This document shows, one piece after another, positions 34,721 to 56,305 of a stretch of 64,000 bases of DNA; the stretch's first letter is position 1; each line of letters opens with the position of its first letter. The position numbers and the translations under genes are program-made. The stretch spans positions 4,064,001 to 4,128,000 of the forward strand of contig OZ220732.1 in NCBI GenBank assembly GCA_965116905.1. Direction: 5' to 3'. The notes beneath the pieces are model-generated. The model searched no databases, was not told the DNA's origin, and was given only the letters and a program-made list of their open reading frames with translations. The DNA is from Longimicrobiales bacterium. Lineage in GTDB: Bacteria > Gemmatimonadota > Gemmatimonadetes > Longimicrobiales > Gaopeijiaceae.

Positions 34721-34757
34721 CGTCCCGATGTCGCCAACCAACCTTCGGACTCGACTC

Positions 34758-36668: not shown

Positions 36669-36694
36669 AGGGGGGGAGGGGGCATCATCGTCCA

Positions 36695-38355: not shown

Positions 38356-38449
38356 CGACCACCATCAGACCCCTGCCCCGGCCATATGGCCAGACGCGCT
38401 GCCGACACTGCTATCTTCCATCTGGAGGGAGATTGACGGGAGGGGAAGG

Positions 38450-38848
38450 ATGTTTGATCCATGTGTCGGGCGTCGGTCGCTTTTTGCCGACGCATGGTTG
38501 GAGGGATACGAGGGCGGCCTCCGGTCTATGGGTGTGCCCCGCGAAGAAAGGATGCGGTTGGTCGCCAGTAGCGTCGGCAGGCTCACCACCGAAGGCTACT
38601 ACGTGGGCTACGCGTTGGGAGCCGAGAGCGGGTACAAGGCCGGCATGGTGGAGGGGCAGTGTGAGGTCATCCGCTCGGCGGCCTGGATCAAGTTCGGGCC
38701 GACAGCAGCGTTCCACGTCTCGGAGCTGGTTGAGTACACTTGCGACCCCGAGCGGACCGCTCACCTCGCAGCTTGCGTTGTGACCTGCGGCACTGCGGCG
38801 GAGTTCCTGGCCCAGGTGGAGGAAATGACGGAGGGAGAGCGGCCGTGA
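38450..38848 (+). CDS. Stand-alone Rpn C-terminal-like small protein
   Basis: Glycines every 4 residues (G.EG type), then KFGPTAA..DPER..CGTAAEFLAQV. Confidence 0.55.
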   Translation: MFDPCVGRRSLFADAWLEGYEGGLRSMGVPREERMRLVASSVGRLTTEGYYVGYALGAESGYKAGMVEGQCEVIRSAAWIKFGPTAAFHVSELVEYTCDPERTAHLAACVVTCGTAAEFLAQVEEMTEGERP

Positions 38849-39309
38849 GCTCGAAGGATGTGGTGACGATCAAGGGATTCGCCAAGGAGGTTGGCCGAGA
38901 CATCTTCAGCCGTTACAGGGAAGGGTTTGACGAGGGCCGCGAGAGCGCCCATGCGGTCGGCCTCGTGACAGGCCGCGAGAGCATCGTCCACGCGCTGACT
39001 GCCACTCGGTTCGGCCCTGAAACGGCGGACCGCGTCGCCGAATTGACCAGGAGCCTTTGCGAGTGTGAGGACGGTTTCGGCATCAGCAGCGCAGATCGGA
39101 TCGGAATCTGCGTCCTGACCTGCGCCACCGCTGATGATCTCCTGGCGAGGGTACGGGAAGTCGAGGAGGAAGAGTCGAACCGGGCCCGTTGGTTCGAGGA
39201 CGATCCCAGGGCCGGATGGGCCGACGCGGCCCGCGACCTCGCGGCTCGACGCGATGACGGCCCTGAGGACGACCCGACTCCCACCGTCCTTGACGAGTCG
39301 GAAGGGTAA
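38845..39309 (+). CDS. Rpn C-terminal-like protein fused to a MazE-like tail
   Basis: EGFDEGRE..RFGPETA..CATADDLLARV, then PRAGWADAARDLAARRDD..PTVLDE. Confidence 0.55.
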   Translation: MSSKDVVTIKGFAKEVGRDIFSRYREGFDEGRESAHAVGLVTGRESIVHALTATRFGPETADRVAELTRSLCECEDGFGISSADRIGICVLTCATADDLLARVREVEEEESNRARWFEDDPRAGWADAARDLAARRDDGPEDDPTPTVLDESEG

Positions 39310-39372
39310 TGGTAGTAGGCACCAGCCGCGAAGAGACCCTGAGGCCCCAAGCGGCCGCCGTTCCGTGGTTGA

Positions 39373-39540
39373 GGGCATCGGAGCGCAGCTTTCTCGGGTA
39401 GCGACTTTGCGGCAGGAGGGCTCCCCAAGCCATCGATGGTGAAGCCGACCAAGCTGTTCACGATGCATTCCTCGCTCATCGCCAAGCGGATCGGTGCCCT
39501 CAGGACCGAAATGACGATGGAAGTCCTACGTTCACATCCA
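39373..39540 (+). pseudogene. mazF: MazF/PemK toxin C-terminal remnant
   Basis: SDFAAGGLPKPSMVKPTKLFTMHSSLIAKRIGAL after an in-frame stop at 39370, no N-terminus. Confidence 0.65.
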
Positions 39541-39581
39541 CGACGACGACCGCAACGTGGCGTTCGATGCACTGGGCTTCA

Positions 39582-41503
39582 TCAACGACCTCCGGCCAGA
39601 CGCCCATAGGCGTCCCTCACCACTGCCTCCGCCAGCTTCCCGCGTATGGCGAAACTCCGTCTGTCCAGCCAGAACTCGGCCCACGTTGCGTCTGTCGCGA
39701 TCCAGTTGTCCCAGAAGAAGGCGCCATTGACGAGGTTCGGATAGCTTGCGCTCGCGTTGAAAAACGCCTGGAAGATGTTGGCCTGGGTTTCCTCGCCGTC
39801 ATCCATTCCGTTTCGGTTGGCGTCCACGAGAACCCGCTCTTCCGAGTGGCGCGCACCTAGAGAGGATCGGCCGGCGCTTCCACGACATCCATCGAGCCGT
39901 ACTCGGTGAATACTATCGCCCGCCCTGGATTCCGGCTGGCAAGCGGAACCAGGTAGTCCTGGAAGATGGCCTCGTAGCTCGCCTGCAGTTCCGGCACACC
40001 GAGTACCGTTGTCGGAGCTCTGGCCGTGAGCGGGAACCACCCGCTGACTCCCACAATGTCAAGGTCAAGGTCTTCCCAGAGGTGACCCGCGCCCGATCCG
40101 CTTCCGTGGTAATCGGCATATATCAGTGCGTTGGCATGCATGTCGTAGGTCAGCCGACCGGAATACACCGCACGCACGCGGCTCACCAGGTCCCGCAGTT
40201 CATCGCCGAAGTCGTTGTACATGTAGCCGGACTCGGGCCGGGCTTCGTCGTCCGGATCGGGGCGCGATCGGAACAGGCGGTCCGTCTCGGTCCCGAGCGA
40301 ATACAGGGCCACTCCCTCCTGCTCGGCGATTCGGGCAAAGTGCACAGCGTTATCCGCGTACGTTTGCCAGAACTCGCCCACAAAGCGGTCGTGGTCCGGG
40401 TGGTCGGGACGCCACGGCCAGTTGGCGGGCACAATCCGATTTCGCCAGTCCTCATCGGGAGGAGCGCCGCCGGTATGTGGCGGGGCTGGATCTCCCAGCA
40501 GATGTCGGCTGAGCGGGCGAGAGGAAGCCTCGGCCTCGTGGGCTTCGAACGCCAGAGTCATGTACACCTCGAATCCATGGCTCCGGAACTCGCGGATCAT
40601 TTGCCGCAGCGAACCATCGCGCCACGTCGGAACGTTCCGGTTCCGACCCGTCTCGCGCGCGACGGAGCTGTCCATGCTGTCCTCGTAGTGGAGGGCCACC
40701 GAAATCAGGATCCAGTTCACATGCAGACCGCGAAGCCAAGCAACGTATTCCAGCGGAATGAGCGAGCCTGTGCTCCCTTGGTCCTCCCAAACCTGCACAA
40801 CGTCTCGATTGGTGCCCCAGTTGCCCGAGATCGCAACGGCGCGCATCGGGAAATCGAAGATGTCCAGCCCCGGACCCAGTTTGGGGGGGCGTCTCGTCAC
40901 CGTGACCCTTGCGGTTCCCTGTGCGCTCGCCGAGGTGGCGGTGACCGACGCCACGCCCTCGGTCACGCCCCGCACCAGTCCCAATCCGTCCACCGTGGCG
41001 ACCGACGAATCGCTCGACGACCATGTGAACTCCGCGCCTTCGACGCGGTGCTCGTTCTCGTCGAAGGCCTCCGCAACCAGCCGAATCGTGTCGCCCACAA
41101 CAACCGTGTCTGCAGTCGGCGTGACCGCGATCCCGACCGCTGCCTGGGCGACCGCAACGGTTGCGGTACCCGCAGCCCCGCCCGCGGTCGCAGTGATCGT
41201 AGCGGTGCCGTTGGCCACCGCCGTCACCAGCCCGTTGGAGTCGACGGTCGCCACGTCGGCGTCGTTGCTCGCCCAGGACACATTGGCACCCGCCATTGCC
41301 TGACCGTGCTGATCGAGCACCTGCGCCGACAGTTGCACGGTTGCGCCCAACGCATTCAGCCGTGCCGTTGCCGGGCTGACCGTTACCGTAGTTGCACGGG
41401 CGGGCTCCGGCGCAGCAGGCTCTTCCGCGTCCCCGCACCCGTTTGCTAGGGGTGCGCCCATCAGAAGCGCGGACACCCGGAGGATGGTGCGGCAACGGCT
41501 CAT
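39582..41503 (-). pseudogene. Ig-like (Big_2 x2) + GH113-like TIM-barrel lipoprotein, frameshifted near 39860
   Basis: ORF 39857-41503 stops after FTEYG..ADPL; the C-terminus (EETQANIFQAFF..GAFFWDNW..IRGKLAE) continues in another frame to 39582. Confidence 0.75.
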
Positions 41504-41793
41504 GGATTCGAAGAGGACGACAAAGCTGCGTGTTCAGTGACCGTCGCAAGGTGGCTAAGCGATGACCCTAACCGCCGCCAGCCTGGTCGGCAACGGACAT
41601 GCCTACGTTGGCCACTCTTCGAAGGTCGTCGGAGTCAATGGAGCAAGTGGCGGCGGCTCTGGCGTCTTATGCCGCCAAGAGAACCGGTCCGATCTGGCCA
41701 ACGCAGGTACGGACCACGGCCGTCAGAAGCGGTTTTCCGTTCCGGGACCCCCTCACGTCTGACGACCCTTAGTGCGCCGCCCAGGAGTAACCC

Positions 41794-42678
41794 TCAGTTG
41801 ACGGTCCGGGCGACGCGGAACCCCAACGCGAAGTTTCGGAAGTCTGCCGCCGATCCACGACGGTAGGCCGAACGCAGTTCGGTCGGATCGTGTAGCCATG
41901 AACCGCCACGCGTGATACGACGAGTACAATCTCCTCTGTACCACGAACTGCCGTCTGTCGGAGCACCCTCATAACTCCCGTTGGCGCAGTCATCGACCCA
42001 CTCCCGCACGTTGCCCAGGATATCGAAAACTCCAAACCCGTTAGGCCGGTAAGAACCTACAGGTGCGGAGTTTGGCTGCCGGTCACGACAACCAACCATG
42101 TCCCTGCCGAAACCGTGCTCGGCGTGTCCATTGGCATCGTATCCGTTGGCAAATTGACACTGCTCCCGATCCGTTTCTCCCCAGTATCGTGCCGTGCGAG
42201 TCCCCGCCCGCGCCACGTATTCCCACTCCGCCTCGCTTAGTAGCCGGTACTCCTCTCCCGTTTGTTCCGACAACCAGTCGGCATACAGCCACGCATCCTC
42301 CCAATTCACCCACACCACGGGCCGTCTACCTCTGCCCCAGCCCTGGTCATGCGGTTCGCGTCCGCCGCAGCCACCCCCTCGAACACACGCATCCCATTCG
42401 TCAAATGTGACTTCGTAGACTCCCACGGCGAACGCATAGTCGATAGTGACTTCGTGTTGCGGCCCTTCGTCGAAGTCGCGTCCTTCCTCCGTTTCCGGCG
42501 AGCCCATTGTGAAGGTGCCCGCCGGCACCACAATCATTCCCGGGCACACGTCGCAGTCGCGGAAGACCTCACCGACTTCCTGCGCCCCGGCAGGGGCGGC
42601 GAAGAGTACCAATGCGGCCAGTGCCACGACGCGGGTATTTACCGCAGGCTCCTGGCAACGCCTGAAGTCGGCGATCAT
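41794..42678 (-). CDS. Secreted FGE-sulfatase (SUMF1/CLec-fold) domain protein 1
   Basis: FRDCDVCP, GVYEVT, RLLSEAEWEYVARAG, GNVREW, RGGSW, GFRVARTVN. Confidence 0.92.
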   Translation of the reverse strand: MIADFRRCQEPAVNTRVVALAALVLFAAPAGAQEVGEVFRDCDVCPGMIVVPAGTFTMGSPETEEGRDFDEGPQHEVTIDYAFAVGVYEVTFDEWDACVRGGGCGGREPHDQGWGRGRRPVVWVNWEDAWLYADWLSEQTGEEYRLLSEAEWEYVARAGTRTARYWGETDREQCQFANGYDANGHAEHGFGRDMVGCRDRQPNSAPVGSYRPNGFGVFDILGNVREWVDDCANGSYEGAPTDGSSWYRGDCTRRITRGGSWLHDPTELRSAYRRGSAADFRNFALGFRVARTVN

Positions 42679-43490
42679 CGGACGCTCCGTGCAACACGGA
42701 AGCCGTAGTACTGGTGCCCTATAGTCGGATACCAGTTGCCACGGTGAGCCGAACGGAGTTTCGCCGGATCGTTGGCCGCGGATCCGCCCCGCAACACTCG
42801 ATAGGAGCAGTCGGATTCGGGTGGCGCAGCACTCCCGTCGTTCGGGGCATTCGAATAGCTGTCGTGCCAGCAGTCCTCAACCCACTCCCACACGTTGCCG
42901 AGCATGTCGTACAACCCAAAGGCGTTCGGGCGGAGTGACCCTACCGGCGCGGTATTCGCGTAGCCACCCGAACACGAAACGTCATCGTCATTCCCGTTCG
43001 CATGCGTGCACTGCTCCGCTTCACTGTCCCCCCAGTAGCGAGCGGTCTGCGTCCCCGCACGCGCCACATACTCCCACTCCGCCTCGGTCAACAGCCGATA
43101 CTCCTGGCGAGTCGCTCCAGAGAGCCAAGTCACGTATGCCTGAGCATCGTCCCAGCTCACATTGACGACCGGACGGTTCGCACGGCCCCACCCTTCATCC
43201 TCGGGAATCGCACCACCACAGCCCCCGTCCCACGCGCATGCATCCCACTCCTCGAACGTTATCTCGTAGACTCCCACCGCGAACGACTCGATCGACACGA
43301 CCCGGCGAGGACCCTCGTCGTCGCCCCTATCTTCCTCCATCTCCGGCGAGCCCATGATGAATCGGCCCGCGGGCACCACGACCATTCGCGGGCACACTTC
43401 GCAGTCCTGAAAAACCTCGTTGACTTCCTGCGCTTCCGCAGGGACAACCAGGAGTGCCAAAGAGGCTTGGGCCAAAATGCGAGCGATCAT
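42675..43490 (-). CDS. Secreted FGE-sulfatase domain protein 2
   Basis: Same motifs; ends GFRVARSVR. Confidence 0.92.
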   Translation of the reverse strand: MIARILAQASLALLVVPAEAQEVNEVFQDCEVCPRMVVVPAGRFIMGSPEMEEDRGDDEGPRRVVSIESFAVGVYEITFEEWDACAWDGGCGGAIPEDEGWGRANRPVVNVSWDDAQAYVTWLSGATRQEYRLLTEAEWEYVARAGTQTARYWGDSEAEQCTHANGNDDDVSCSGGYANTAPVGSLRPNAFGLYDMLGNVWEWVEDCWHDSYSNAPNDGSAAPPESDCSYRVLRGGSAANDPAKLRSAHRGNWYPTIGHQYYGFRVARSVR

Positions 43491-43642
43491 CGGGAGTTCT
43501 TGGCAACGCGAAAACCCTGATCGCCGTTTTGGAAATCGCCTGGGTAGTCATAGCGTTCCGCTGAGCGGACTTCATTCGGAGCGTGGCGCCACTTGCTGCC
43601 ACGCCTAACGCGACGTGCGCAGTCTCCCATGTAGCGGCCCAT
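43487..43642 (-). pseudogene. Orphan FGE-domain C-terminal tail
   Basis: GDCARRVRRGSKWRHAPNEVRSAER..GFRVAKNSR*; stop overlaps the ATG of the next gene. Confidence 0.85.
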
Positions 43643-43659
43643 GCTGGTGTGGTGAGAGG

Positions 43660-45939
43660 CTATGTTGCCCTCCGGCGGTTCACGAGATGCGACACCACTC
43701 CGACCATAGCCGCTATCAACAAGGCCGCAAAGAGATGGTCAACAAACCATTTCCAGAACCGCGCCCACCAACTCATCATGTCTGAGCAGAGATTGCGCCG
43801 GATCTCTTTCCGAACCTTCGTTTCATCTGTCGCGCCCTGGCCGTGAATCACTAGTGCCGAGATCACAGTTTCTTCACGCTCCGGCCGCACATGATACGGC
43901 CGACAACCATTGTTGTCTTCTGCCTTCGACGCGCCCCCATCCAGACGCAAGAGCGTCAGGATCACGTCTTCGTCGCTCACCTTCATCGCGTGATGCAAGG
44001 GGATCCTTCCGGACAAATCTTCTTCCCTACTATCGAACCCTAGCTCGGTGCAAATCTTCACGGAAGTGGATGTAGCCTGCTTGAAGAATGCTTCGCTCGT
44101 CCACATTGGCACTGTCGTGCAGCGAAACCTAGCGCGCAGGGAAGCGCTCAGACTATCGTTGCCAGTCAAAGGTCCTTCACCATTTCCATTCTCAAATCTC
44201 AGCGAAGCGCCGGCTTCGACCAGAGCTTGAACCATATTCAAATGGCCGGCACGGAATGCAATGTGCAGAGGCGTGTCACCATCGGCATTGGTGGCATCGA
44301 CTGATACGTCGGTCTTCAGAAGGGAGCGGAGAGAGGCAAGGTTCCCTTCTTGAGCTGCTTCATGCAACGGATGCCGGGAAGATGCCCGACGAACTATGAT
44401 TCGGTAAGACCCGATGGCCTCTGTTGATGCCGAGTTGGCTAAGACAGTGTAGGACCCCGCTTCGGGCGCCCTGAAGGCAACCCTTGCATCCAGTCCACCC
44501 CCTCCGTCATCGTCGGACGCGATGGGTGTCCCGTTTCTCAGAACTACGAGGAAGGGATCGAAGTCAGACGATGTCATCTCTACTACTATGCTGTCGCCTT
44601 CCAAAGCGTTGTAGATCCAAGTGTCATATGGGGTTCCGTCAAGAGAGAGTTGCGCGTCACTTGGCGTCAGTTCACCCACTCCTGCACCGTCTGCTCGGAG
44701 CTCCGTCGGGAACCTGAGAGAAAGCACATAGTCACCTGTTTCCTCAGGATCTGCACTCGTCGCAGTGACCGTATAGCTGCCTGGTAACAGCGCGACTTGT
44801 AGCCAAGAATTCAAGGTCAGGCCTGGCCCCCCATCGTCGTCACTTGCGATTTCCACCGTGCTTCCCCGCAGACCCCGGGACAGTACCAGGTACGAGTCGA
44901 TCTCCTCGGAAGTCATCTCGATGATTACCATTCCGGAGTCGGCAATCTCGAACACCCATTCATCGAAATAGGAGCCGCGTGGCATGCGCGGGTCGTCAGC
45001 ACTCAAAGATCCACTATTGGGTTCGACGGGGCGAAGAGTGGACGGCGTTGATGACTCTACCGACCCGTCGCCATGTTGAACCGTCACTGTGATTCCATAA
45101 GACCCAGCGGCTTCTGTTGATACCGCGTTGGCCAAGATAGTGTAGGATCCCACTACAGGCGCCCTGAAGGCAACCCTTGCATCCAGTCCACCCCCTCCGT
45201 CATCGTCGGACGCGATGGGTGTCCCGTTTCTCAGAACTACGAGGAAGGGATCGAAGTCAGACGATGTCATCTCTACTACCATGCTGTCGCCTTCCAAAGC
45301 GTTGTAGATCCAAGTGTCATATGGGGTTCCGTCAAGAGAGAGTTGCGCGTCACTTGGCGTCAGTTCACCCACTCCTGCACCGTCTGCTCGGAGCTCCGTC
45401 GGGAACCTGAGAGAAAGCACATAGTCACCTGTTTCCTCAGGATCTGCACTCGTCGCAGTGACCGTATAGCTGCCTGGTAACAGCGCGACTTGTAGCCAAG
45501 AATTCAAGGTCAGGCCTGGCCCCCCATCGTCGTCACTTGCGATTTCCACCGTGCTTCCCCGCAGACCCCGGGACAGTACCAGGTACGAGTCGATCTCCTC
45601 GGAAGTCATCTCGATGATTACCATTCCGGAGTCGGCAATCTCGAACACCCATTCATCGAAATAGGAGCCGCGTGGCATGCGCGGGTCGTCAGCACTCAAA
45701 GATCCACTATTGGGTTCGACGGGGCGAATCTCGGACTGCGCAGCAACAGACGGTGAGCCGAGGGAGCTTGCCGAGGTCAGGACGATTGCCCACAGGAACT
45801 GCCACTGAAGTGAGCAACAGCTCAGGTGTGGTGGCAGGATGAGGCTCTTGTAACACGATCCAAATCGCTGTTCGCGGATTTTCTTCACCAACCGATCCCT
45901 TCGGCCCAACAAGGAGGATTCCCTGTCCCTTCCATCCAT
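43660..45939 (-). CDS. Membrane-anchored protein with 4 PPC-like domains and ankyrin repeats (start uncertain)
   Basis: Repeated D.YL/DPFL..ASDDDGG..G.Y.V modules, GDTPLHIA ankyrin, C-terminal TM + RRR; visibly lower GC. Confidence 0.8.
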   Translation of the reverse strand: MDGRDRESSLLGRRDRLVKKIREQRFGSCYKSLILPPHLSCCSLQWQFLWAIVLTSASSLGSPSVAAQSEIRPVEPNSGSLSADDPRMPRGSYFDEWVFEIADSGMVIIEMTSEEIDSYLVLSRGLRGSTVEIASDDDGGPGLTLNSWLQVALLPGSYTVTATSADPEETGDYVLSLRFPTELRADGAGVGELTPSDAQLSLDGTPYDTWIYNALEGDSMVVEMTSSDFDPFLVVLRNGTPIASDDDGGGGLDARVAFRAPVVGSYTILANAVSTEAAGSYGITVTVQHGDGSVESSTPSTLRPVEPNSGSLSADDPRMPRGSYFDEWVFEIADSGMVIIEMTSEEIDSYLVLSRGLRGSTVEIASDDDGGPGLTLNSWLQVALLPGSYTVTATSADPEETGDYVLSLRFPTELRADGAGVGELTPSDAQLSLDGTPYDTWIYNALEGDSIVVEMTSSDFDPFLVVLRNGTPIASDDDGGGGLDARVAFRAPEAGSYTVLANSASTEAIGSYRIIVRRASSRHPLHEAAQEGNLASLRSLLKTDVSVDATNADGDTPLHIAFRAGHLNMVQALVEAGASLRFENGNGEGPLTGNDSLSASLRARFRCTTVPMWTSEAFFKQATSTSVKICTELGFDSREEDLSGRIPLHHAMKVSDEDVILTLLRLDGGASKAEDNNGCRPYHVRPEREETVISALVIHGQGATDETKVRKEIRRNLCSDMMSWWARFWKWFVDHLFAALLIAAMVGVVSHLVNRRRAT
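44465..45728. repeat. Intragenic direct repeat of 571 bp (44465-45035 vs 45158-45728), period 693
   Basis: Only one difference seen (GDSM vs GDSI). Confidence 0.92.
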
Positions 45940-46148
45940 AGTATGGCTCACTCGGTTGCGCACAGTATCGCTCGCTCGGTCGAGCATCAGTTTCACGAAA
46001 GGCTTCGAATTGCGAGCCTGTGGTCGCCGTCGTTCTAAGTTCCATGGCATACGCCGGTCAAGTTGGGGGGCTCTACCCGAGCGCACAACCGTGTCGTTGC
46101 GGCCGTCTTCGTGCAAGTCTTTCCCGATGGTGTTTCGCTGGCCGTTGT

Positions 46149-46394
46149 TCATAGTACCCTCTTCACCGTAGTGGAACGTTGACAAAAGATGGTTGGGCTG
46201 GTCTTCTGACTCACGACACTGTGGAGTACCCAGGGGCTCCACGCCTCCAGCCGACGCTCTTCGATGCATCGCCGAAACCGCAGAATGTCGCCCCAGCCGT
46301 CACGGCCGATCAAGCGATCTTGGGCAGCTACCGAACGCGCGACGGCCAAGGCCGTCCCCGCCAAGGCAGCCAGCACTTCGGCGCGCGCAGTCAT
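46149..46394 (-). pseudogene. Truncated N-terminus of a secreted, probably ankyrin-type gene
   Basis: MTARAEVLAALAGTALAVARSVAAQ signal peptide; WVLHSVVSQKTSPTI resembles PLHHAAENTTNPLV in the 50943 ankyrin protein. Confidence 0.6.
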
Positions 46395-47251
46395 CGTACG
46401 CCCCGGGCAACACGAAACCCGATCCGAGGATGCTTCTCGCGCAATGGCCAAGTGCGAACAGCCGAGCGGAGTCTCCCCGGCGCATTGCCCCAGGAGCCGC
46501 CGCGAATCACACGACTAGAGCACTCGCCGGACTCGGATTCCCTGACGCTCCCGTCGTTCGGGGCGGCCGCATAGTCCTCTATCCAACAGTCCGCCGTCCA
46601 TTCCCAGACGTTGCCCAGGACGTCATGCAGCCCGAACCCGTTCGGTTGAAACGATCCCACCGGCGCCGCGTTCTCGTAGCCATCCGAGCACGAGAGGTCC
46701 TCGTCGTTCCCGTTGGCATATCGGCACTGATCCGCTTCACTGTCTCCCCAGTACCGGGCGGACTCGGTTCCCGCACGCGCCACGTACTCCCACTCCGCTT
46801 CCGACAAGAGGCGGTACTCGCGTCCGGTCGCTGCGGAGAGCCATGCGACGTACGCCATGGCGTCTTCCCAGTCCACGTTGATCACCGGACGGTTGGCCCG
46901 CCCCCACCCTTCGTCCTCGGGAATCGCGCCGCCACACCCCCCGGCCCACGCGCAGGCGTCCCATTCCTCGAAGGTCACCTCGTACACTCCGACCGCAAAC
47001 GACTCGATCGACACGACCCGACGAGGTCCTTCCATGTCATACAACCGGCCCTCCTCCGTCTCCGGCGAGCCCATGATGAAGCGGCCCGTCGGCACCACAA
47101 TCATCTCGGGGCAGTCGTCGCAGTCCCCGAACACCTCGCCGACCTGCTGGGCCACGGCCGATACGCCAGGAACCACCGCGCCGATCACCCACGGAAGGAA
47201 CCCGGCCGCTACCCCACACCCGAATCCGCAGAATCGCCAAGCCACCTTCAT
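46391..47251 (-). CDS. Secreted FGE-sulfatase domain protein 3
   Basis: Same motifs; ends GFRVARGVR. Confidence 0.92.
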   Translation of the reverse strand: MKVAWRFCGFGCGVAAGFLPWVIGAVVPGVSAVAQQVGEVFGDCDDCPEMIVVPTGRFIMGSPETEEGRLYDMEGPRRVVSIESFAVGVYEVTFEEWDACAWAGGCGGAIPEDEGWGRANRPVINVDWEDAMAYVAWLSAATGREYRLLSEAEWEYVARAGTESARYWGDSEADQCRYANGNDEDLSCSDGYENAAPVGSFQPNGFGLHDVLGNVWEWTADCWIEDYAAAPNDGSVRESESGECSSRVIRGGSWGNAPGRLRSAVRTWPLREKHPRIGFRVARGVR

Positions 47252-47371
47252 GTACATCTCCATCTCGTCGGTATTGTATAGTCCTGACCACTCCGCGCCG
47301 CCACACCGACAAGGGCCGCTATCGCCGCACGGGTTGGTGACTCTGCCCCGGCGTTCAAGACCATAGGCGGC

Positions 47372-47623
47372 AATCATGGGAACCCAATTCGATGCCGCGC
47401 AAGCGCTTTCCTACACCGTCAACCGGCGCCGGATTGCTGACGTGTGATCGCCCGGCGGCCTGGATGACTGGAATATTGGTCGCATAAGTCACTTGTGCAT
47501 ATTATTGTCAGCATTGGGGGCCCGAACTTGGGTCACGAGCGCCCAGATCGCGGATATCTCCACCCGTTGAGCGCAAAACCCACAAGTCCCCCCCGATACA
47601 ACGAAGCGCCTCCAATTGAGCGA
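47372..47623 (-). promoter_or_regulatory. Conserved leader, copy 1, upstream of the FGE array
   Basis: Colinear with 51841-52093; core ACTTGTGCATATTAT(T/C)GTCA. Confidence 0.7.
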
Positions 47624-47628
47624 GGCCC

Positions 47629-48302
47629 GGATCGTCCGCGAGGCCGACGACCGCCAGCAGCCCACCGCCTACCCGGACTATCCGCACCCCGAGGCCGAGG
47701 GCGTCCCCCTGCATCCCACGGGCGACGGCAACTGGACCGGCACCCTCTCGCTCAACGCCGGCGACGCGGACGGTACCGGCGGCATTATGGACAATTTTGC
47801 TTTTGAGGGCGGCCAACTCGCCGCGGCGGAATGGTCGAACCACCGGCTTCTATATGCGACACCGTCGCTCCAGCAGGATGTTCACCTCTCGGGCGTGGCC
47901 ACGGTGCGCGTGCGCGTGGCCTCCGATGCAGCCGCGGCGAATCTGACCGTCTGGCTCGTCTCGCTCCCCTGGACCGACGGCGACGACATCAACGACAACG
48001 TCATCACCAAGGGCTGGGCGGATCCGGCCAACGCGGGTGCAGCGGACATCGCGGCTCCGCGGTCGGGCACCGACCTCACGCCCGGCGAGTTCGTCGAACT
48101 GGAGTTCCCGCTGCAACCGGACGACCAGGTGATCCCGGCGGGGGCGCGGATCGGGCTGATGGTGTTCTCGAGCGACAAGTACTTCACGGTGCACCCGGAG
48201 CCGGGGACGGAGCTGACGGTCGATTTGCGGGGGACGAGCGTGGAGTTGCCGGTGGTGGGGGGCGTGGAGGTGTTGAGGAGGGCGTTTAGGCCAGTGAGTT
48301 GA
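47629..48302 (+). pseudogene. pepX: Duplicated pepX 3' fragment (repeat copy 2)
   Basis: Near-identical to 35995-36668; lacks the catalytic domain. Confidence 0.92.
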
Positions 48303-48315
48303 GGGGGGAGGCAGA

Positions 48316-49447
48316 ATGACCACGTTGATCCGGCGGGCGGGCTTCCTCGGCACACGGTTTCGCCTGTCCCTGCTCGTCGTGACAGCGGCGTGCACCGATG
48401 GCCCGGATCAGGCATCCGGTCCGGGCGCCACAACGGTCCGAGACAGCGCGGGGATCCGGATCGTGACCAGTGAGGGGCCACGATGGGGCGCCGGTGAAGG
48501 GTGGACGGTCATCCCCGAGCCGGATCTGGTCATCGGTGACGAAGACCCGATGGGCGGCGGAACGGACACCCTCTTCGGATCGATTCGGGCCATGGTGGTG
48601 CTGCCGAGCGGACGCTTTGCGGTAGCGGACGAACACTCGGCTGTCATATCCGTGTTCGACCCCCATGGGCAGCTCGTCCACCGCTTTGGGGGCCATGGAG
48701 AAGGGCCCGGAGAAGTTGGCGGCGTCTGGGATCTGTACGGCTGCGCCGGGGACACGGTCATCGTGCGCTTTCGCACCGAGCTGAGCTTCTTCGACGGCGA
48801 CGGCCAGTTCATCCGCCGCATCAACTGCGCGGGTGCGGGCACGACCTGGGCGCTCGCGGCGATAGCGCCCGACTGCAGGCGCTTCGTGGCTTCGCACAGT
48901 ACCGGCGGATCGGCCCCGCCGGCAGGTCAGGAGTGGTTGCTGCCCAGCGTGCTCGTGTACACTGACGATGACTTCGTGGCCACCGACACCATCGCCCGGG
49001 AGGTGACAGGCGAGGGGTTCACGGGTTCACTGCGAGGAGAGGATGTCTTTGTGGCGCTACCCTAGACTCCGGTCGACGCCAACGTGGAACTCAGGGGCGA
49101 CCAGCTGGTTGCGGGATTCGGGCGGTGGGCGGAGTTCCGGATCCGTTCCCTTGGCGGGCACCTCGTGCAGCTGATCCGCTGGCACGCCACTCCCGAAGAG
49201 GTCACGGACGCCGACCGCGACCGCTACATGGACAAGCGCGACGAGTCCGCCTCGCGACCCTGCCCCGCCCGAGACCTGGACGGTCCTCGATTCAGCGGGT
49301 GTCTGGCTGGGGCCCGTGCACCTGCCCGACGGATTCGCCGTCCACGAGGTGGCGAACGGGCGGGTGTACGGCGTTCACACCGCGCCGCTCGGAGCCCAGA
49401 CCGTCAGGGTTCATCGGCTTGTGGACCCCCATTCGGCCAGCGGCTGA
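48316..49447 (+). pseudogene. Beta-propeller paralog of 37066-38355, inactivated
   Basis: TGG>TAG at 49063-49065 and a 173-bp deletion (equivalent to 37994-38166) near 49246. Confidence 0.88.
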
Positions 49448-49461
49448 GTTTCTTGCCAGGC

Positions 49462-50034
49462 TCAGGATGCCGGGGGTAGCTGGCCCGCCGCGCGCGGTTC
49501 GTTGAGCCTTTGTTCAAAATCCGCTATGCGTCGGTAGTTGGGGCGTGTCTGATCCTGTATCAGGCCCTTGAGGTACTCATCTTCGAACGGAAGCATGGTA
49601 GCAAGGTGACCGGCGACCATATTATTGGTAGCGGGTGGAAGCAGGTCACGGAAGTACAGGTCGCAGGCCGCTGCCGTGACGTCCGACAGCCTCTTCGCAC
49701 TGGTATGGAATTTGAATTTCCTACCCATGTCAGCCTTTTGCTCTTTTTGCTCTTGCAAGTAGCCGCGGTGCGCTTGGTCAAGCCTGTCAGCCAGCCGAAG
49801 GTATGTGTCTACATCCGTTGAACTGGTGTGTTGCTCCAGGGCTGCGAAACTGACCATCACCGCGAGCAACACAGCTATGTGCGCCAACGCCTGGAGGAGA
49901 TCCAGCATGTCGGGGCGCGCCACGCGCACTCCAAGGAGCGGTAACTGCGGCCAGATAGCCGCCACCAATCCCAACACCGCAACAACCAGTGCCACCAAGA
50001 GTATTACGGCAGCCGTCTTTGCAAATCGGGTCAT
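49462..50034 (-). CDS. Hypothetical membrane protein (2 TM + helical domain)
   Basis: AGGAGG ribosome-binding site, 190-aa ORF, lower GC. Confidence 0.7.
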   Translation of the reverse strand: MTRFAKTAAVILLVALVVAVLGLVAAIWPQLPLLGVRVARPDMLDLLQALAHIAVLLAVMVSFAALEQHTSSTDVDTYLRLADRLDQAHRGYLQEQKEQKADMGRKFKFHTSAKRLSDVTAAACDLYFRDLLPPATNNMVAGHLATMLPFEDEYLKGLIQDQTRPNYRRIADFEQRLNEPRAAGQLPPAS

Positions 50035-50103
50035 GTTGGATACCCTCCTACGTTACCAGGTGTAACCGTGAGCGGCGTGTCGCCGTCTTGATCTCGCGGG
50101 CAG

Positions 50104-50946
50104 TCATCGGACGCTCCGGGCGACCCGGAATCCGAAGTGGGGACTCCGGTTACTGGCGTCGCCCCTGAGCCGGCGGGCCGAACGGAGGTCGTTCGGACCG
50201 TCGTAGAACCCACCACCCCGCACCACACGGTAGTCACAATCGCCGGCGTACGATGAAAGTCCATTGGTGGGAGCATCGTCGTAGCTGCCATAGCAGTCAT
50301 CCACCCATTCCCACACGTTCCCCAGGGCATCGTAGAGCCCGAACCCATTCGGTCGGTAAGTGCCTACTGGTGCCGGACCCTCCTGCCTGTCCCGGCAGCC
50401 GACGCTGCTGTCGCCGTTGGCATACTCGCACTGCTCGCGCGTCCCATCCCCCCAGTACCGCGCCGTCTGAGTCCCGGCCCGCGCCACGTACTCCCACTCC
50501 GCCTCGCTCAGCAGCCGGTACTCCTCCCCGGTTCGTTGGGTGAGCCAATCCGCGTACTGCCACGCATCCTCCCAATGCACTTCGGACACAGGACGCCTGC
50601 CGCGGTCGGTCAAAACAATCGGCTCGTAACCACCGCATCCGCCCCCCTGCACACATGCGTCCCACTCATCGAACGTGACTTCATACACGCCCACGGCGAA
50701 CGAATAGCCAATGGTGACTCGCCGCTGAGGCCCTTCGCGATCCCGCCGCCCTTCCTCCGTCTCCGGCGAACCCATGATGAAGCTCCCCGCTGGTACCACG
50801 ACCACCTCAGGGCACATGTCGCAGTCCCGGAATACCTCGCCCACTTCCTGGCCCGCAGCTGACCGTGTCGGCATCAAGCACCCAATCACCGTCAGCGCGA
50901 ACAATCCTGCCAGTCCTCCCCACCGGGGCGTTCGCAATCGGCTCAT
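50104..50946 (-). CDS. Secreted FGE-sulfatase domain protein 4
   Basis: Same motifs; ends GFRVARSVR; ATG overlaps the ankyrin gene stop. Confidence 0.92.
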   Translation of the reverse strand: MSRLRTPRWGGLAGLFALTVIGCLMPTRSAAGQEVGEVFRDCDMCPEVVVVPAGSFIMGSPETEEGRRDREGPQRRVTIGYSFAVGVYEVTFDEWDACVQGGGCGGYEPIVLTDRGRRPVSEVHWEDAWQYADWLTQRTGEEYRLLSEAEWEYVARAGTQTARYWGDGTREQCEYANGDSSVGCRDRQEGPAPVGTYRPNGFGLYDALGNVWEWVDDCYGSYDDAPTNGLSSYAGDCDYRVVRGGGFYDGPNDLRSARRLRGDASNRSPHFGFRVARSVR

Positions 50947-51755
50947 GGCTCCCTGGCCCCCGCTTCCCGAAGCATGCGCACGATGGTGTCTCGCTCGGAT
51001 CCGTAGCACGACTCGGCGACCTCGAGCGGCGTCTGATCGAGACCCCTCGTCGCGTTCGGGTCCGCTCCATACTCCAGCAGCACGCGCACGAGAGGCTGTC
51101 TGCACCTGTCGATGGCGACGTGTAGCGGCGTCCCAAGAGTGGTCTTCGCGTTCGGATCGGCGCCGACTGCGAGCAGAGCTTCCAGCACCAGCGGATTCGT
51201 TGTGTTCTCAGCTGCATGGTGCAACGGAGTCACCAGTCCCCAGGATCCACTGGGATCGGCACCCGCGTCGAGGAGCAGTTCGACCAGTGCGATGCTGTTG
51301 GGCTGATTGCCCAGGACGTGGTAGAGCGGCGTGTAGCCGAAGCGATCCGGGCCCAGGTCCGCGTTTGCGTAGAGCAGTGCAGCCACCACACCGTGAACGA
51401 CTGTCGCGTTGTCCGTGCGCTGAACCGCCCAGAATAGCGGGCTCTCCACCCCCCCGATGGGGTTCGGGTTCGCCCCGGCCCTCAGCAGCATCTGAACCAC
51501 GGCGGGGGAGCGCGTCCACTCGGCCGCATGTCTCAGGATTCCCTGTGCATTCGGATCGGCGCCGGCTTCAAGACACTCGGCGATGTGGACGGGTCTCGCC
51601 TCGTTCCACCAGGTCTCCAGGAACCGCGTGTCCCGCCTCCACGGATTGGACCCATTGGGGTCGCACACGGGATTGTCCGGGCTCTGCGCGGCGGCGGGTG
51701 CAGCGGTCAGGGCCGCAAGTGCCAGGGTGGCTAGAGCTGCGGCGCGGACGATCAC
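50943..51755 (-). CDS. Secreted ankyrin repeat protein
   Basis: Signal peptide ending AAA-Q, repeated TPLH..LL.AGADPN; GTG start at 51755. Confidence 0.9.
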   Translation of the reverse strand: MIVRAAALATLALAALTAAPAAAQSPDNPVCDPNGSNPWRRDTRFLETWWNEARPVHIAECLEAGADPNAQGILRHAAEWTRSPAVVQMLLRAGANPNPIGGVESPLFWAVQRTDNATVVHGVVAALLYANADLGPDRFGYTPLYHVLGNQPNSIALVELLLDAGADPSGSWGLVTPLHHAAENTTNPLVLEALLAVGADPNAKTTLGTPLHVAIDRCRQPLVRVLLEYGADPNATRGLDQTPLEVAESCYGSERDTIVRMLREAGAREP

Positions 51756-51835
51756 GGGATGCTGCGGGCGACGCGGAAGTCGATTGAAGCCCATTGCTGT
51801 TCGGCCCTCCAGTCGCAATGGTAGCGGATGTGTTT
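51752..51835 (-). pseudogene. Orphan FGE-like tail
   Basis: IRYHCDWRAEQQWASIDFRVARSIP*; stop overlaps the ankyrin GTG. Confidence 0.65.
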
Positions 51836-51840
51836 CGAGC

Positions 51841-52093
51841 CATCATGGCAGTCAGAATCAATGCTGCGCAAACGTCTCCGGAGGCGCCCAACTGGCAACA
51901 CACTCCCCGACCTGGGATCGCCCAGCGATCCGTATGACTGAAATAATGTGCGCACGCTCTACTTGTGCATATTATCGTCAACATTATCATCCGAACCTGG
52001 ATCACCGGCTTGGCGACGACAGGCATCCTAAACCCCTTGGGCGCCAAGCTTTCCAGTCCTCCGCCGACCGACGGAGCACCCCCGTCTGAGCGA
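51841..52093 (-). promoter_or_regulatory. Conserved leader, copy 2
   Basis: Minus-strand TTGACG followed by the inverted repeat ATAATATGCACA-N9-TGCGCACATTAT. Confidence 0.7.
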
Positions 52094-52103
52094 AAAATGC
52101 GCG

Positions 52104-52220
52104 ATGACATCCGGAGAGACCGACGACCATAGGCAGCGTCACAATGGGGTGAGCGGTGGCGTACACTTGGCGCCCTGGTTCGGCTTCAGCGGATTCCGGG
52201 TCGCGCGCACTGTCAATTGA
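52104..52220 (+). pseudogene. Mini-ORF ending in an FGE tail, divergent from the leader
   Basis: MTSGETDDHRQRHNGVSGGVHLAPWFGFSGFRVARTVN*. Confidence 0.75.
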
Positions 52221-52255
52221 CTCGTGCGCCGACCGGCTGGCGGCCACCGCGCCCG

Positions 52256-53443
52256 CTACCTGCCAATCGACTGACCCACCAGATCGCAGTCCCTCACACT
52301 CACACCACTCTCGCGCATCACATCGTACCACGACGACTGTACGATCCCGGAGATCCTGTCGAAGATGGCTTCGGCCGCCACTCGGTCCAGCAGGAACCGC
52401 CCCGCTCCAGCGACGATATTCTCACGACTCGGAGCACGGCCGTCTGGACCGCAGATCATGGTGAAATCGCGACGCTTGTCACCCGCCAACGGTGTTGGTA
52501 CCGGGGCAGAGGCAGGCGCGAGACGCCAGCCAGTGCCCTTTGCGACCATCATGGGGTGGCGCGGATTGTCCGTGAGACACGAGATGGCGACGTTGAAGCA
52601 AATGCGCCCAAAGAGCTCGCGCAGGTCCTCCCTGGGGTGTGAACTCACCCTTCGAACCCGGTCGGCCAATGTCAGGTATGACCAGCCATGCTTCGTGGCC
52701 GGTGCAGAGTCCATGCCGAGCAGCGTAAAGCCGCTGATCAAACGGCTGCAGGCATAGCCAGCGCCCACCCAGCTTCGGTCGTAGCGTCGCACCATCAGGA
52801 CGTCTTCGCCGTGGGCGCTCTCGATTCGGCTGGGAACGGCATCAAGGCCGCAGTTCCGTGCAAGCTGCAGTGTCGCGTGGCGGACACGGTTCTGGTTCCA
52901 TATCATGCCGTCCCGCGGGAATTTCGCTATCCAGAGTGTGCGATCATCTTCAACCGTCACCTTGGGTGCGTTTGCCCCAGGGACCTCGTGACCTCCACGG
53001 AGAGCATCATCGAGAGGTGCGTCCTGCACAACGTGGCCCCGGTCGAAGGCCGCCTTGAGGCCGGTCAGGTCGTCAACGGTGGGGAAGTGCAGCCTTGGCA
53101 CGGGAGGGTCGAGTCCGAGAGCGAACGCGACCGCGCCACCGTAGTCGCTCGGACTCTTCACCACATCCGGAGTGCTTCCTCCTCCGATGAACCGGCCCCA
53201 TGAAGAGGGTATGGTGTCTCGCATCGCGCCGAAGACACCGCCGACGCTTCCCTTGCGAACGCGCCGGGTGAGTCGGAGGTGAACAGGGTCAAGTTCGACC
53301 GCGTCCGCGCGGCTGAGATAGCTGCGGCCGTAGATGAATTCTCCGAGTGGTGCGTCGCCGGACACGCGGAAACGCCCGGCCACCACATAGCGGCTCTGTC
53401 CGGGAAGAGCCACAAAAACAAACCGGTCGAAATCAGAAGTCAT
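52256..53443 (-). CDS. hipA: HipA-family protein with degenerate kinase motifs
   Basis: FIYGRSYL..LDP, GAVAF, WIAKFP, RRYDR, ELFGRICFN, WRLAP. Confidence 0.85.
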   Translation of the reverse strand: MTSDFDRFVFVALPGQSRYVVAGRFRVSGDAPLGEFIYGRSYLSRADAVELDPVHLRLTRRVRKGSVGGVFGAMRDTIPSSWGRFIGGGSTPDVVKSPSDYGGAVAFALGLDPPVPRLHFPTVDDLTGLKAAFDRGHVVQDAPLDDALRGGHEVPGANAPKVTVEDDRTLWIAKFPRDGMIWNQNRVRHATLQLARNCGLDAVPSRIESAHGEDVLMVRRYDRSWVGAGYACSRLISGFTLLGMDSAPATKHGWSYLTLADRVRRVSSHPREDLRELFGRICFNVAISCLTDNPRHPMMVAKGTGWRLAPASAPVPTPLAGDKRRDFTMICGPDGRAPSRENIVAGAGRFLLDRVAAEAIFDRISGIVQSSWYDVMRESGVSVRDCDLVGQSIGR

Positions 53444-53786
53444 CGCGGAGCGGTTGGAGGCGCGGGGCCTGACTCGGGAAGCGGGCGGACTCCAGAATCT
53501 TGCCCTCTTCGTCACGGTCCGGGTCGGCCAGGTGGTCCGCGTCGGCAAGCAGACCCAGTGCCCACAAGACCCCGAAGTAGGCCGCTGCCGACACGCCCGG
53601 CTTCCCGTTCTCCACATTGGCGACCGTGGAGCGGGAGGCGCCGATGCGGTCGGCGATGTCCTGGATCCGCAGCCGTCGCCGCAAGCGGGCGGTGCGGAGG
53701 TTGTCGCCAAAGCGCCGTAGGGTGTCCGAGACTTCGCCCGGCGGGCTGGTGCTGATCGTGGCGCGAGTTGGGCTCCCGTTGCTCAT
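53433..53786 (-). CDS. hipB: HipB-like XRE HTH antitoxin
   Basis: LRTARLRRRL..IADRIGASRSTVANVENGKPGVS..LWALGL. Confidence 0.85.
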   Translation of the reverse strand: MSNGSPTRATISTSPPGEVSDTLRRFGDNLRTARLRRRLRIQDIADRIGASRSTVANVENGKPGVSAAAYFGVLWALGLLADADHLADPDRDEEGKILESARFPSQAPRLQPLRDDF

Positions 53787-53976
53787 CCGTCCCACCACGT
53801 GATGAAGAGGGTATGATTGTCTGCACGACATTGACGCAACAATATCGCGATAGTTCCACGACAGCAATCCCGACGCGATGGCCGTCTGGCCGACCAATCC
53901 CCACCGTCCTGGACGAGTCGGAACAGGCTCGCGCTTAGACCTGCCGCGACAGCCGAACCGCCGCCGCGCCGCCCCT

Positions 53977-56175
53977 CTACCGCCGCCCCTCCGTCGCCAC
54001 CGCCCCGTCACCCCCCATGTAGCGGTCGAAGAAGTCGTCCGTTGCATCGAAGGTGATCAGCCAGCGCTCGTGCAGCAGGAAGTCGTGCACGTCGTCCGGG
54101 AACACGATCAGCTCGTGCGGCACGCCCTGCGCGCGGAGCAGCTGCACCAGCCCCACCGTCTGCGAAAACGCCACGTTGCGGTCGTCGTCGCCGTGGATCA
54201 GCAGCACCGGTGACGTCCAATTCTCGACCTCGGCCACCGACGACGACTGGTAGGACACCGTCTCCGGGTCGATCGAGTTCCCCCACAGGTGCACGCCGGC
54301 GATGTCGACGCCCGCCGCGAACAGGTCGGAGTCCCGCGCCAGGCCCTGCGCCGTGAGAATCCCCCCGTACGAGAGCCCCCAGAGTCCGATCCGGGCCGCA
54401 TCCACGTCGTCGCGGTCGCGCAGATACTCGCCGGCCGCCTTGATGTCGCGGTATTCGGTGTTGCCCAGGCGCCCGCGCCCCGGCGCGTTACGGAACTCGC
54501 GGCCGTACCCGATACCGCTCCGGTAATTCACCGACAGCACCACGTAGCCCTTGTTCGCGAAGTACTGATTCATCGCGTAGGCCATGTGGTAGAAGTGCAT
54601 GTAGTGGTAGCCGAGCAGCATCTGCCGCCGGGACCCGCCGTGGATGAAGATCATCGCGGGCCGCTTCTCGCCGGGCTGCAGGTCGGGGGGCAGGAAGAGC
54701 TGGTTGTAGAACTCGAAGCCGTCCTCGGCCTCGAGCGTGACCGCCTCGGGCATGACGTGCTCGTCGAAGGGGTAACGCGCCGGCAGATCCCGGATCGTCC
54801 GCGCCTCGCCGCCGTCCGCAGGGACCACCGCGACGGTCAGCGGCTGGCGGGCGTCCGCGTACAACACCGCCACGTCGCGTCCCGACGCCAGCGCGGCCGG
54901 GTAGGTCTCGATGCCGTCGCCGTGGGTGAGCTGCCGCGCGTCGCCGCCCGACGTGGGCACGCGCCACAGGTGGCGGCGGTCGATGTCGCCCGCGTTGGTC
55001 GCGTAGAAGAGGGTGCGTCCGTCCGGCGAAAGCGAGATGTATTCCGCGATGCCATCGCCCGGCGTGAGCTCCGCGGGGGTGGCGGGTGCGCCGGTGAGCC
55101 AGCCCGCGCCGTTGGCCGTGCCGCCCGAAGCCGCCACCGAGTAGTACCGCCGCCACCCGTCCGGCTCGGCCTGGAAGATGATGTGGTCGCCCGCCCAGAT
55201 CACCGAGCGCACTTCGCGGTGGATCTCGTCACCGGCCGCGTTGTGCCACACCTCGCGCGCCTCGCCGGTGCCCGCGTCGCCGACCCAGATCGAAAAGTCG
55301 TAGCCACCCGCGAACCGCGCCTCGGTCATGCCGTCGGGCAGGTCGTCCGGGCTCGCCTCGCCCAGGTCGGCCCGTGCCCCGAAGGGCAGCCCCGGCCTGC
55401 GGATGAAGGCGACCCGCGTGCCGTCGGGGGACCAAGTCGGGCTGGCGTCGCGGTCCACGGCCGGTCCCAGATAGGTGATGCCGGGGTTGTCGGTGTCGTA
55501 GACGCCGATGAAGCTGTGATCCTCGCGGTCGCTCACGAAGGCGATTCGGCGCGAGTCGGGAGACCACACCGGGCTGCCCTGACTGCCGAAGACGCTGAAG
55601 AGGGGCCTCTCGGGCTCGGTCGTCACCACGCCAGGGTTCACCGGCGCGCGGTAGATCGCCCCGTCCCTCGCGTACGCGACCCACTCACCGTCGGGCGACA
55701 GCGCCACGTTCCACGCCTCGACGACCCGCCAGGGCTCGCCGCCCGCCGTGCTCACCGCCCACACCGCGCGCTCGGCGCCGCGTGGGTCGCTGGCCGGGTT
55801 CGCGATCCATCCCTCGCGGTTCGGCGTGTGGCCCCGCAGGAAGACCAGTGTCGAGCCGTCGTCGGAGATGCGCAGGTTCGACAGATCGCGCCCGTCATCG
55901 TCCTCGTAGCGCGTGAGCCGCACGGGCTCGAAGCCGGGAGCCGTCGCCGTATAGACGTTGCGCCGCCCTTCCTCGTACTCGATCCACGCGATGCGGTCGG
56001 CCGCCTTCGCCGCGACCAGCTGGACCGGGTAGCCGGGACTGAGCACATCCTCGATCGAGAAGCGCTGGGCCTGCACGGGTGGGGCGGTGAGCGCGACGGA
56101 GAGCACGACGGCGAGCGCGGCCAGGGCGAGCACGGCGAGGGCGCGAACGGGGACGAAGACGGTGCGGCGCTTCAT
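53977..56175 (-). CDS. S9 prolyl oligopeptidase family protein
   Basis: PD40-type WSPD repeats, GLSYGG, HGDDDRNV, C-terminal His. Confidence 0.92.
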   Translation of the reverse strand: MKRRTVFVPVRALAVLALAALAVVLSVALTAPPVQAQRFSIEDVLSPGYPVQLVAAKAADRIAWIEYEEGRRNVYTATAPGFEPVRLTRYEDDDGRDLSNLRISDDGSTLVFLRGHTPNREGWIANPASDPRGAERAVWAVSTAGGEPWRVVEAWNVALSPDGEWVAYARDGAIYRAPVNPGVVTTEPERPLFSVFGSQGSPVWSPDSRRIAFVSDREDHSFIGVYDTDNPGITYLGPAVDRDASPTWSPDGTRVAFIRRPGLPFGARADLGEASPDDLPDGMTEARFAGGYDFSIWVGDAGTGEAREVWHNAAGDEIHREVRSVIWAGDHIIFQAEPDGWRRYYSVAASGGTANGAGWLTGAPATPAELTPGDGIAEYISLSPDGRTLFYATNAGDIDRRHLWRVPTSGGDARQLTHGDGIETYPAALASGRDVAVLYADARQPLTVAVVPADGGEARTIRDLPARYPFDEHVMPEAVTLEAEDGFEFYNQLFLPPDLQPGEKRPAMIFIHGGSRRQMLLGYHYMHFYHMAYAMNQYFANKGYVVLSVNYRSGIGYGREFRNAPGRGRLGNTEYRDIKAAGEYLRDRDDVDAARIGLWGLSYGGILTAQGLARDSDLFAAGVDIAGVHLWGNSIDPETVSYQSSSVAEVENWTSPVLLIHGDDDRNVAFSQTVGLVQLLRAQGVPHELIVFPDDVHDFLLHERWLITFDATDDFFDRYMGGDGAVATEGRR

Positions 56176-56305
56176 GGCAAGGATCTCCAGCGTTCCGGGC
56201 GTGGGGCGGCATTCGGCCGGCACGATGCGCCGGCTACGGACACGATGCCCGTCGCGACGTTCCCGGGCAAACGGCGGGGCGCTGCCGCAGGTACCGGCCA
56301 TGTCA

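Follow-up and report, generated by a model that had tools for sequence, protein, structure and literature searches.

The window analysed here is a stretch of 64,000 nucleotides from genome G000 (C1:4064001-4128000), which is assembled as one contig of 4.2 Mb and is 97% complete. Between a pepX-type gene (34674-36671, plus strand) and an S9 peptidase gene (53977-56301, minus strand) lie two arrays of FGE/CLec-fold and ankyrin genes. Those members of the S9 peptidase's protein cluster that bear names belong to Gemmatimonadota, and the assignment to this phylum rests on them. Pfam bears out the initial annotation's count of four intact FGE genes and an ankyrin gene on the minus strand; the four full PF03781 genes have E-values of about 1e-50 to 1e-56, and their FGE domains are mutually 60-73% identical. 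The features of the interval are as follows.

41794..42678, minus: FGE/CLec-fold gene, type d (PF03781, E 5e-50), last of array A
42639..42678, minus: deletion scar, a 3-codon start fused to a gene tail (comparison with G057 and protein P0005)
42675..43490, minus: FGE/CLec-fold gene, type c (PF03781, Pfam)
43487..43633, minus: 3' end, ~47 codons, of an FGE gene otherwise lost (nhmmer, model positions 643-783 of 789, 39.6 bits)
43660..46152, minus: PPC and ankyrin domain gene of low GC (56%) (Pfam, composition)
46149..46394, minus: truncated 5' end of ANK2 (77% to nucleotides 1-137 of the intact G057 ANK2)
46391..47263, minus: FGE/CLec-fold gene, type a (PF03781, E 1e-52), opening array A
47310..47625, minus: leader A, conserved non-coding sequence with an 8-bp inverted repeat (homology among genomes)
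47629..48305, plus: duplicate of the pepX 3' third (94.5% identical to the resident gene)
48316..49479, plus: broken copy of a 6-bladed propeller gene (80-88% to the resident copy downstream of pepX)
49462..50034, minus: 190-aa gene at the end of array B
50031..50107, minus: scar of a deletion in ANK2, whose opening 16 nt run straight into internal nt 1052-1079 (comparison with G057 ANK2)
50104..50946, minus: FGE/CLec-fold gene, type b (PF03781), with the clearest footprint of a diversity-generating retroelement (DGR) among the window genes
50943..51755, minus: ankyrin gene ANK1 (Pfam), coupled to gene b
51752..51781, minus: bare FGE tail, the first gene of array B being lost (score 22.3)
51815..52070, minus: leader B, a diverged copy (homology to leader A)
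52100..52220, plus: inverted, degenerate FGE 3' end of the hairpin-type class (score 37.7; best alignment to G057 hairpin-class ends)
52256..53760, minus: hipA-like and HTH gene pair (HipA_C, HTH_31)

The PPC-ankyrin gene (43660-46152) and the pepX 3' duplicate with its propeller pseudogene, which lie between the arrays (47629-49479), had been missed in the initial annotation. The former is likely a foreign insertion, and it contains an internal 693-nt tandem duplication (97.5% identity, 44393-45728). The 190-aa gene matched no family in Pfam or NCBIfam. The hipA-like/HTH pair, copies of which occur in relatives in varying orientation, is a hotspot passenger. The N-terminus of the type d gene reads through the 36-nt relic of a deleted gene, and the FGE proteins of the window are read as secreted from their N-termini, with a hydrophobic stretch that ends in A-x-A-Q. 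G000 has another copy of ANK1, at 94% identity, outside this locus, and a second array at C1:3576903-3579423, FGEa-ANK1-FGEb-ANK2, shows the basic unit. That array adjoins a McrBC-like gene pair, so named from its motifs (L001:4935-7650), near a partial tRNA-like sequence. We also observed two short ORFs at 38255-39309, the first weakly matching (E 5e-4) the C-terminus of a YhgA/Rpn-like protein that adjoins S9 in relatives, and, at 39857-41503, a protein with two Ig-like (Big_2) domains and a GH113-like region, the 3' end of its gene seemingly truncated.

Stop and start codons overlap as ATGA or GTGA at eight of the nine junctions checked, as had been claimed for most of them; the ninth, at 42639, ends in GTAA, and the ankyrin-to-FGE junction at 50943 has the overlap but lacks the GFRVAR tail. 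The CGG-AGC codons of the tail put GGAG ~6 nt upstream of the next ATG, and the tail would appear to supply both the ribosome-binding site and the start of the following gene. We scored tails with a matrix built from 31 intact examples, against a null of 3 Mb of shuffled genome whose maximum was 11.8. Four extra tails had been described, and those at 52191, 51781 and 43516 stand above that maximum with scores of 37.7, 22.3 and 17.0; they are, however, not one kind of object but deletion scars of different lengths. What had been read at 43487 as a bare tail instead preserves ~47 codons from the 3' end of an FGE gene and overlaps gene c at its start. The tail at 42639 is present, but it carries a 1-nt insertion where G057 has an in-frame 12-codon mini-ORF, and this relic is inherited, being the same in G057 and in protein P0005. 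The bare tail at 51752..51781 lies after a shortened leader and overlaps the start of ANK1. The tail at 52191 is real but lies on the plus strand, inverted relative to the arrays; the end to which it belongs is clearly alignable over its last ~45 nt only, and our best model does not explain the inversion. The two MTAR starts described as truncated (46394, 50107) are so: both are truncated copies of ANK2, which is intact in a relative. All 10 high-scoring tail matches in the genome lie at FGE ends or inside the window, for which reason we rejected the tail as a genome-wide site, and no bare tail was found in 371 kb of other FGE loci.

Each array does follow a homologous leader, as proposed: the two are 75% identical over 77 nt, and the homology covers ~300 nt when relatives are aligned in. 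Eight copies occur in 4 of the 53 genus genomes, a distribution that led us to reject the leader as the end of a widespread element. Leader A is possibly a promoter plus operator; no sigma-70 consensus was found, and Rfam gave no credible match to a structured RNA. The leader has a sharp 5' edge, joined to five different upstream sequences within ~10 nt, a feature that our best model leaves unexplained. Separately, in the window and in relatives, 3' pieces of pepX that differ in length turn up repeatedly after the pepX gene, in two cases abutting this edge.

The FGE domain is present in 27 of 31 related genomes, with 0 to 25 matches per genome. For the pepX interval we went through 20 further genomes of the genus, chosen from the best matches rather than drawn at random: 5 hold intact FGE genes, 3 hold remnants and 12 hold none, 4 of these 12 not being read through to S9. 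G057 has seven FGE and two ankyrin genes in this interval; G047 has three leaders, and downstream of one of them an ankyrin tail, not an FGE tail, remains. The expectation that content and order vary among relatives was therefore correct, since the arrays are not identical across the genus genomes read, and our best reading of the pepX interval is a hotspot for amplified operons. Relatives' intervals also carry toxin-antitoxin pairs, YhgA/Rpn-like genes and IS elements as passengers. Because the recurrent pepX 3' fragments, of various lengths, are 83-95% identical to the resident gene, the sequences suggest that the interval has been taken up from relatives. Away from the pepX locus, G057 (C1:1826000-1847000) and G059 (C2:882000-901000), which are two species, share a near-identical FGE/ankyrin block with leader and pepX fragment, and this suggests a recent transfer. 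A 50-kb FGE/ankyrin island stands at both contig ends of C1 in G010, in two versions that are ~99% identical and have different gene content, likely two strains in one assembly; what separates the haplotypes is an integrase element and an IS-bounded block rather than any change at tails.

Across most junctions, contigs of two public sequencing runs, each from a different study, agree fully with the window; one of the runs is possibly the source sample. Among the differences listed, their a and d patches are identical to those of the window, contigs being prone to drop rare variants. Joints within these contigs are short-sided, and paralogs or related strains may be their source. One contig, from run X4, joins window position 39302 to 53970 and skips the whole array (its short side is 30 letters); it likely represents a related strain with an empty site. 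Two runs labelled sponge metagenome contain just 5-6% of the sequence words, and we make no habitat claim.

Where the arrays have changed, ANK1 follows four different FGE (VR) types as well as an orphan tail, ANK2 follows two types, and the f-type start follows both e and b genes. A count from the neighbour table places at least five exchanges of neighbours within the 30-nt tail, and to that extent the proposal of recombination at gene ends stands. Breakpoints are not confined to the tail, however, and many are scattered. The type c genes, whose variable patch is near-constant across a cluster of eight, have four different signal peptides among the seven members with an N-terminus; the 35 FGE genes compared include other leader swaps in the 5' block and one mid-gene chimera. 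In the separate N- and C-terminal trees that the initial annotation had called for, the 5' and 3' halves of these 35 genes mostly agree. Deletions in ANK1 rejoin at about 57>658, 95>688, 12>776 and leader>753, and those in ANK2 at 16>1052 and 166>591, so that their ends are scattered while the start and end of the gene stay in place. Random breakage had been named as a result that would count against a recombination system, and what we find is partly that: scattered ends beside tail swaps. No recombinase gene was found in the window locus or in the annotated loci of relatives, apart from a truncated integrase in the G059 interval, and no resolvase was found at the locus; the genome as a whole has 12 tyrosine recombinase matches, the nearest ~167 kb away.

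DGR targets have a CLec fold that presents a ligand-binding patch (PMC5758913), and the window genes carry a C-terminal CLec/FGE domain (PF03781, with sequence matches to PDB 5HHA and 2Y3C). In codon tables of 56 C-terminal patches, fixed codons alternate with NNC and NGG codons. We scored the 43 patches of equal codon number, 39 after removal of near-duplicates: 12 of the hairpin class, 16 from array genes and 11 in neither group. Window gene a, whose loop is one codon shorter, was left out of the window scoring and not scored in full. Against the template of an intact DGR in G109 (see below), the hairpin class mismatches at 203/324 A sites and 120/864 non-A sites (0.63 vs 0.14), the array genes at 277/432 and 337/1152 (0.64 vs 0.29) and the three window genes at 52/81 and 69/216 (0.64 vs 0.32). 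Third base C is kept at AAC codons in 124/132 cases in the hairpin class, 124/176 in the arrays and 22/33 in the window, compared with 0.26-0.33 in gene bodies. Both contrasts are similar with the L155 template. Adenine-templated 3' variation is thus strong in the hairpin class and eroded in the arrays. AGG-type codons are poorly retained (10/32), and the rare Arg codon CGT and the TCG of the template motif persist in array genes. The footprint is significant for window genes b and d but not for c alone (p 0.17), with p-values that treat related genes as independent.

An excess of change at A sites could by itself reflect variable residues, an account that does not fit the third-base contrast. 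That the array genes are simply paralogs multiplied under diversifying selection, without DGR ancestry, is the least probable of the explanations considered here: it would accommodate the non-A mismatch of ~0.3 in array genes, the poor AGG retention and the agreement of the half trees, but amino-acid constraint does not produce third base C at 40/61 four-fold codons at AAC positions in array genes (0.29 in bodies), nor does it account for the persistent CGT and TCG or for an avd relic in the same locus of G047. Patch pN/pS is 0.16-0.38 for types b, c and d, 0.65 for a and 1.22 for e (few genes), with bodies at about 0.2. The b, c and d patches are under purifying selection, while a and e still change fast, and the description of the patches as frozen holds best for the first three.

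A template pattern built from the patch codons matched nothing in the 53 genus genomes, and related patterns matched a viral contig, a MAG and six metagenome contigs, in every case at a DGR template adjoining an RT or target. The Avd protein of one of these DGRs was found in 4 of 301 genomes of the order: as part of an intact DGR in G109, as a pseudogene in the G047 pepX array and as two distant matches. G109, which belongs to the same family but another genus, carries the consecutive series target-hairpin-avd-RT-TR (C2:3093934-3096780) and a remote target at C2:424710; its Avd passes NF033474, and it is the only full match to an intact DGR among 301 family genomes. Its TR differs from the adjacent target at 14 A sites and 3 others, and from the remote target at 13 and 1. 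No mobility genes were seen beside this element. The G109 target and the G010 genes have an N-terminal domain in common. As side observations, the metagenome loci L176-L179 are DGRs in which two FGE targets each flank avd-RT with clean A-only variation, and in G088 (C1:1759319-1759552) a variable region is joined almost directly to a 91-nt piece of a DGR RT, which is another stage of DGR decay.

The genome of the window retains less. A hairpin-class FGE target at C1:1860018-1861544 is followed by a GC hairpin and an avd stub (1861544-1861803), of which 24-26 codons at C1:1861716-1861793 are homologous to the G109 avd; no intact avd was found in G000. This relic (C1:1860018-1861803) lies inside an integrase-bearing island. 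A GC-rich inverted repeat downstream of the IMH is common, though not universal, in DGRs (PMC5758913); the genome has one, at 1861577, and none lies downstream of the four window genes. In G047, C2:2999377-3000611 holds a type-b array gene with a hairpin-class variable end, a hairpin and an avd pseudogene, inside the pepX array. The initial annotation's RT-free reading was right as far as the enzyme goes, with no RVT_1 match in G000, where a DGR RT query gave only a VR look-alike and chance matches and blastn with the G109 TR gave VRs only. None of the 53 genus genomes has a DGR-type RT, and those RTs of the genus that were examined belong to group II or resemble retron RTs. We therefore rejected an active DGR in G000 or the genus, for want of RT, TR and whole avd; trans-acting DGR activity on the hairpin-class gene of G000 may still occur. 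A distant DGR template had been named as a result that would undermine the original proposal, and one was found, but in other genomes.

Since an eroded DGR footprint occurs in a genome without DGR enzyme or template, we consider it likely that the window FGE genes are former DGR targets, frozen, amplified with ankyrin genes into coupled operons and rearranged by homologous recombination and deletion. Given the adenine-templated signature and the DGR relics in the genome and its relative, the GFRVAR tail is the old 3' constant (IMH) end of the DGR, doubling as the next gene's start. We propose that a DGR of the G109 type, for which the family provides a matching intact element, diversified the ligand-binding patch of CLec-fold genes, leaving patches that vary at template adenines and keep the third base of AAC codons, and that the element then decayed in the genus. 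Some targets would have kept the hairpin, as have those followed by avd relics in G000 and G047; others would have separated from the DGR, shed the hairpin and been copied into operons alongside ankyrin genes. RT, TR and hairpin are absent at the window genes. The pepX-S9 arrays differ in number, order and signal peptides, and the reordering, presumably RecA-dependent, would proceed by crossovers where conservation is highest, chiefly in the tail together with the similar MTAR starts. Deletions that leave the tail would survive, the tail holding the next gene's ribosome-binding site and start, and would generate orphan tails. The proteins are candidate exported binders for host, phage or neighbour surfaces.

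Several observations sit awkwardly with this explanation: for RecA, 30 bases at 85% identity make a short substrate, a site-specific system would likewise be expected to give five or more swaps at a single spot, the cognate template of the genus was not found and that of G109 differs at several codons, and the signature is weak in the window itself. As a tentative extension, to which we give rather low credence, a rare family-level element may mint tips on hairpin-bearing targets and depart, with hosts banking the variants through the IMH-derived tail into large RT-less operons that encode secreted lectin-fold proteins and ankyrins, a heritable and horizontally traded library of binders.

We regard as unlikely the related scheme of a visiting DGR with harvest, in which a rare mobile DGR rewrites hairpin-bearing targets whose ends are recombined into RT-less operons as a living archive. 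It draws on hairpin-class patches that are nearly undrifted (124/132) and all different in a genus with no DGR-type RT in 53 genomes, on G010, with 25 FGE matches (some double-counted at duplicated contig ends) and only group II RTs, on the N-terminal domain common to the G109 target and the G010 genes, and on G047:2999580, where a type-b array body has a fresh hairpin-class end, hairpin and avd relic. That chimera is, however, the only clear case of harvest; there is no intact DGR in the genus sample, no mobility genes adjoin the G109 DGR, both G010 haplotypes carry the same patches, and recent plain loss fits the same data.

A dedicated site-specific shuffler that cuts at the GFRVAR tail, its recombinase encoded elsewhere, we hold to be very unlikely. 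The swaps at the tail, the presence within 10 kb of three or four surplus tails, of which one is inverted, and the tyrosine recombinase matches would fit it, but the locus itself has neither recombinase nor resolvase, scars vary in length with scattered deletion ends, an ankyrin tail is kept in the same way, bare tails are missing from the other FGE loci, and two runs show the window's arrangement. The tail is indeed the most conserved 30-nt block between subtypes (0.85, followed by the EAEWEY block at 0.84, with 0.63 overall), but this is accounted for by its protein motif, IMH ancestry and start site. The original claim of a DGR-independent system with the tail as dedicated site accordingly falls, since a template explains the patch, breakpoints are scattered and the locus has no recombinase.

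On the preferred reading, in which the window genes are former DGR targets, the locus bears on the fate of DGR products after loss of the enzyme, in that the genus keeps and multiplies the targets of an element that is all but missing from the family. Surveys based on RT miss such loci, and the DGR-made share of CLec families is likely undercounted; the third-base test can reveal RT-less targets, as it does here, where it predicted a template. The series from the intact DGR of G109 through undrifted hairpin-class targets to drifted operon copies outlines a path from hypermutation to a fixed repertoire.

By sequence, the closest solved relative of the window genes is PvdO (PDB 5HHA; NF051459), with E 5e-50 over the whole domain. 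We rejected membership of that family: the window genes score ~200-225 bits against an NF051459 cut-off of 500, and, unlike PvdO, they have no pyoverdine context and a variable C-terminal patch. A formylglycine-generating enzyme was rejected as well, the alignment to bacterial FGE stopping at GGS, before the catalytic segment.

Shufflons (Rci/sfx) and integrons (IntI/attC) combine variable gene order, a short repeat at gene ends and an upstream leader. The window arrays share the variable order, the repeated gene-end sequence and the leader, but they have no adjacent recombinase or attC-like hairpins, and their breakpoints extend beyond the repeat.

The nearest parallels are among DGR targets. 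In Treponema denticola (PMC4891356), FGE-type CLec targets persist in strains without RT and TR, the DGR being gained and lost among strains; the likeness extends to TvpA (PDB 2Y3C), which matches gene c with E 3e-14. Here, unlike the T. denticola case as described there, the DGR occurs in 1 of 301 family genomes, and the targets are amplified into coupled ankyrin operons that are still rearranged. Nostoc PCC 7120 all3226 exemplifies CLec paralogs that arose by duplication, retain traces of TR-VR homology and lack an RT close by, and the authors of that study suggest that the machinery was removed after a variant had been selected (PMC7517822). The cyanobacterial genomes still hold a DGR, and their targets are dispersed and mostly cytosolic kinase or protease fusions, whereas the window genes are tandem, single-domain and predicted to be secreted. 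For Thiohalocapsa PB-PSB1, a preprint (bioRxiv 10.1101/2023.09.22.558884) describes FGE/CLec targets expanded by duplication and recombination, with N-terminal swapping and partial locus decay; reads show the DGRs there to be active, and IS/MITE elements are linked to the decay, whereas here there is no RT and no activity was seen. Nothing on RT-less target operons spread across a genus was found for this group in the literature searched. RT-less DGR targets and duplicated target paralogs are thus already known, and what is new at this locus is their scale and operon form.
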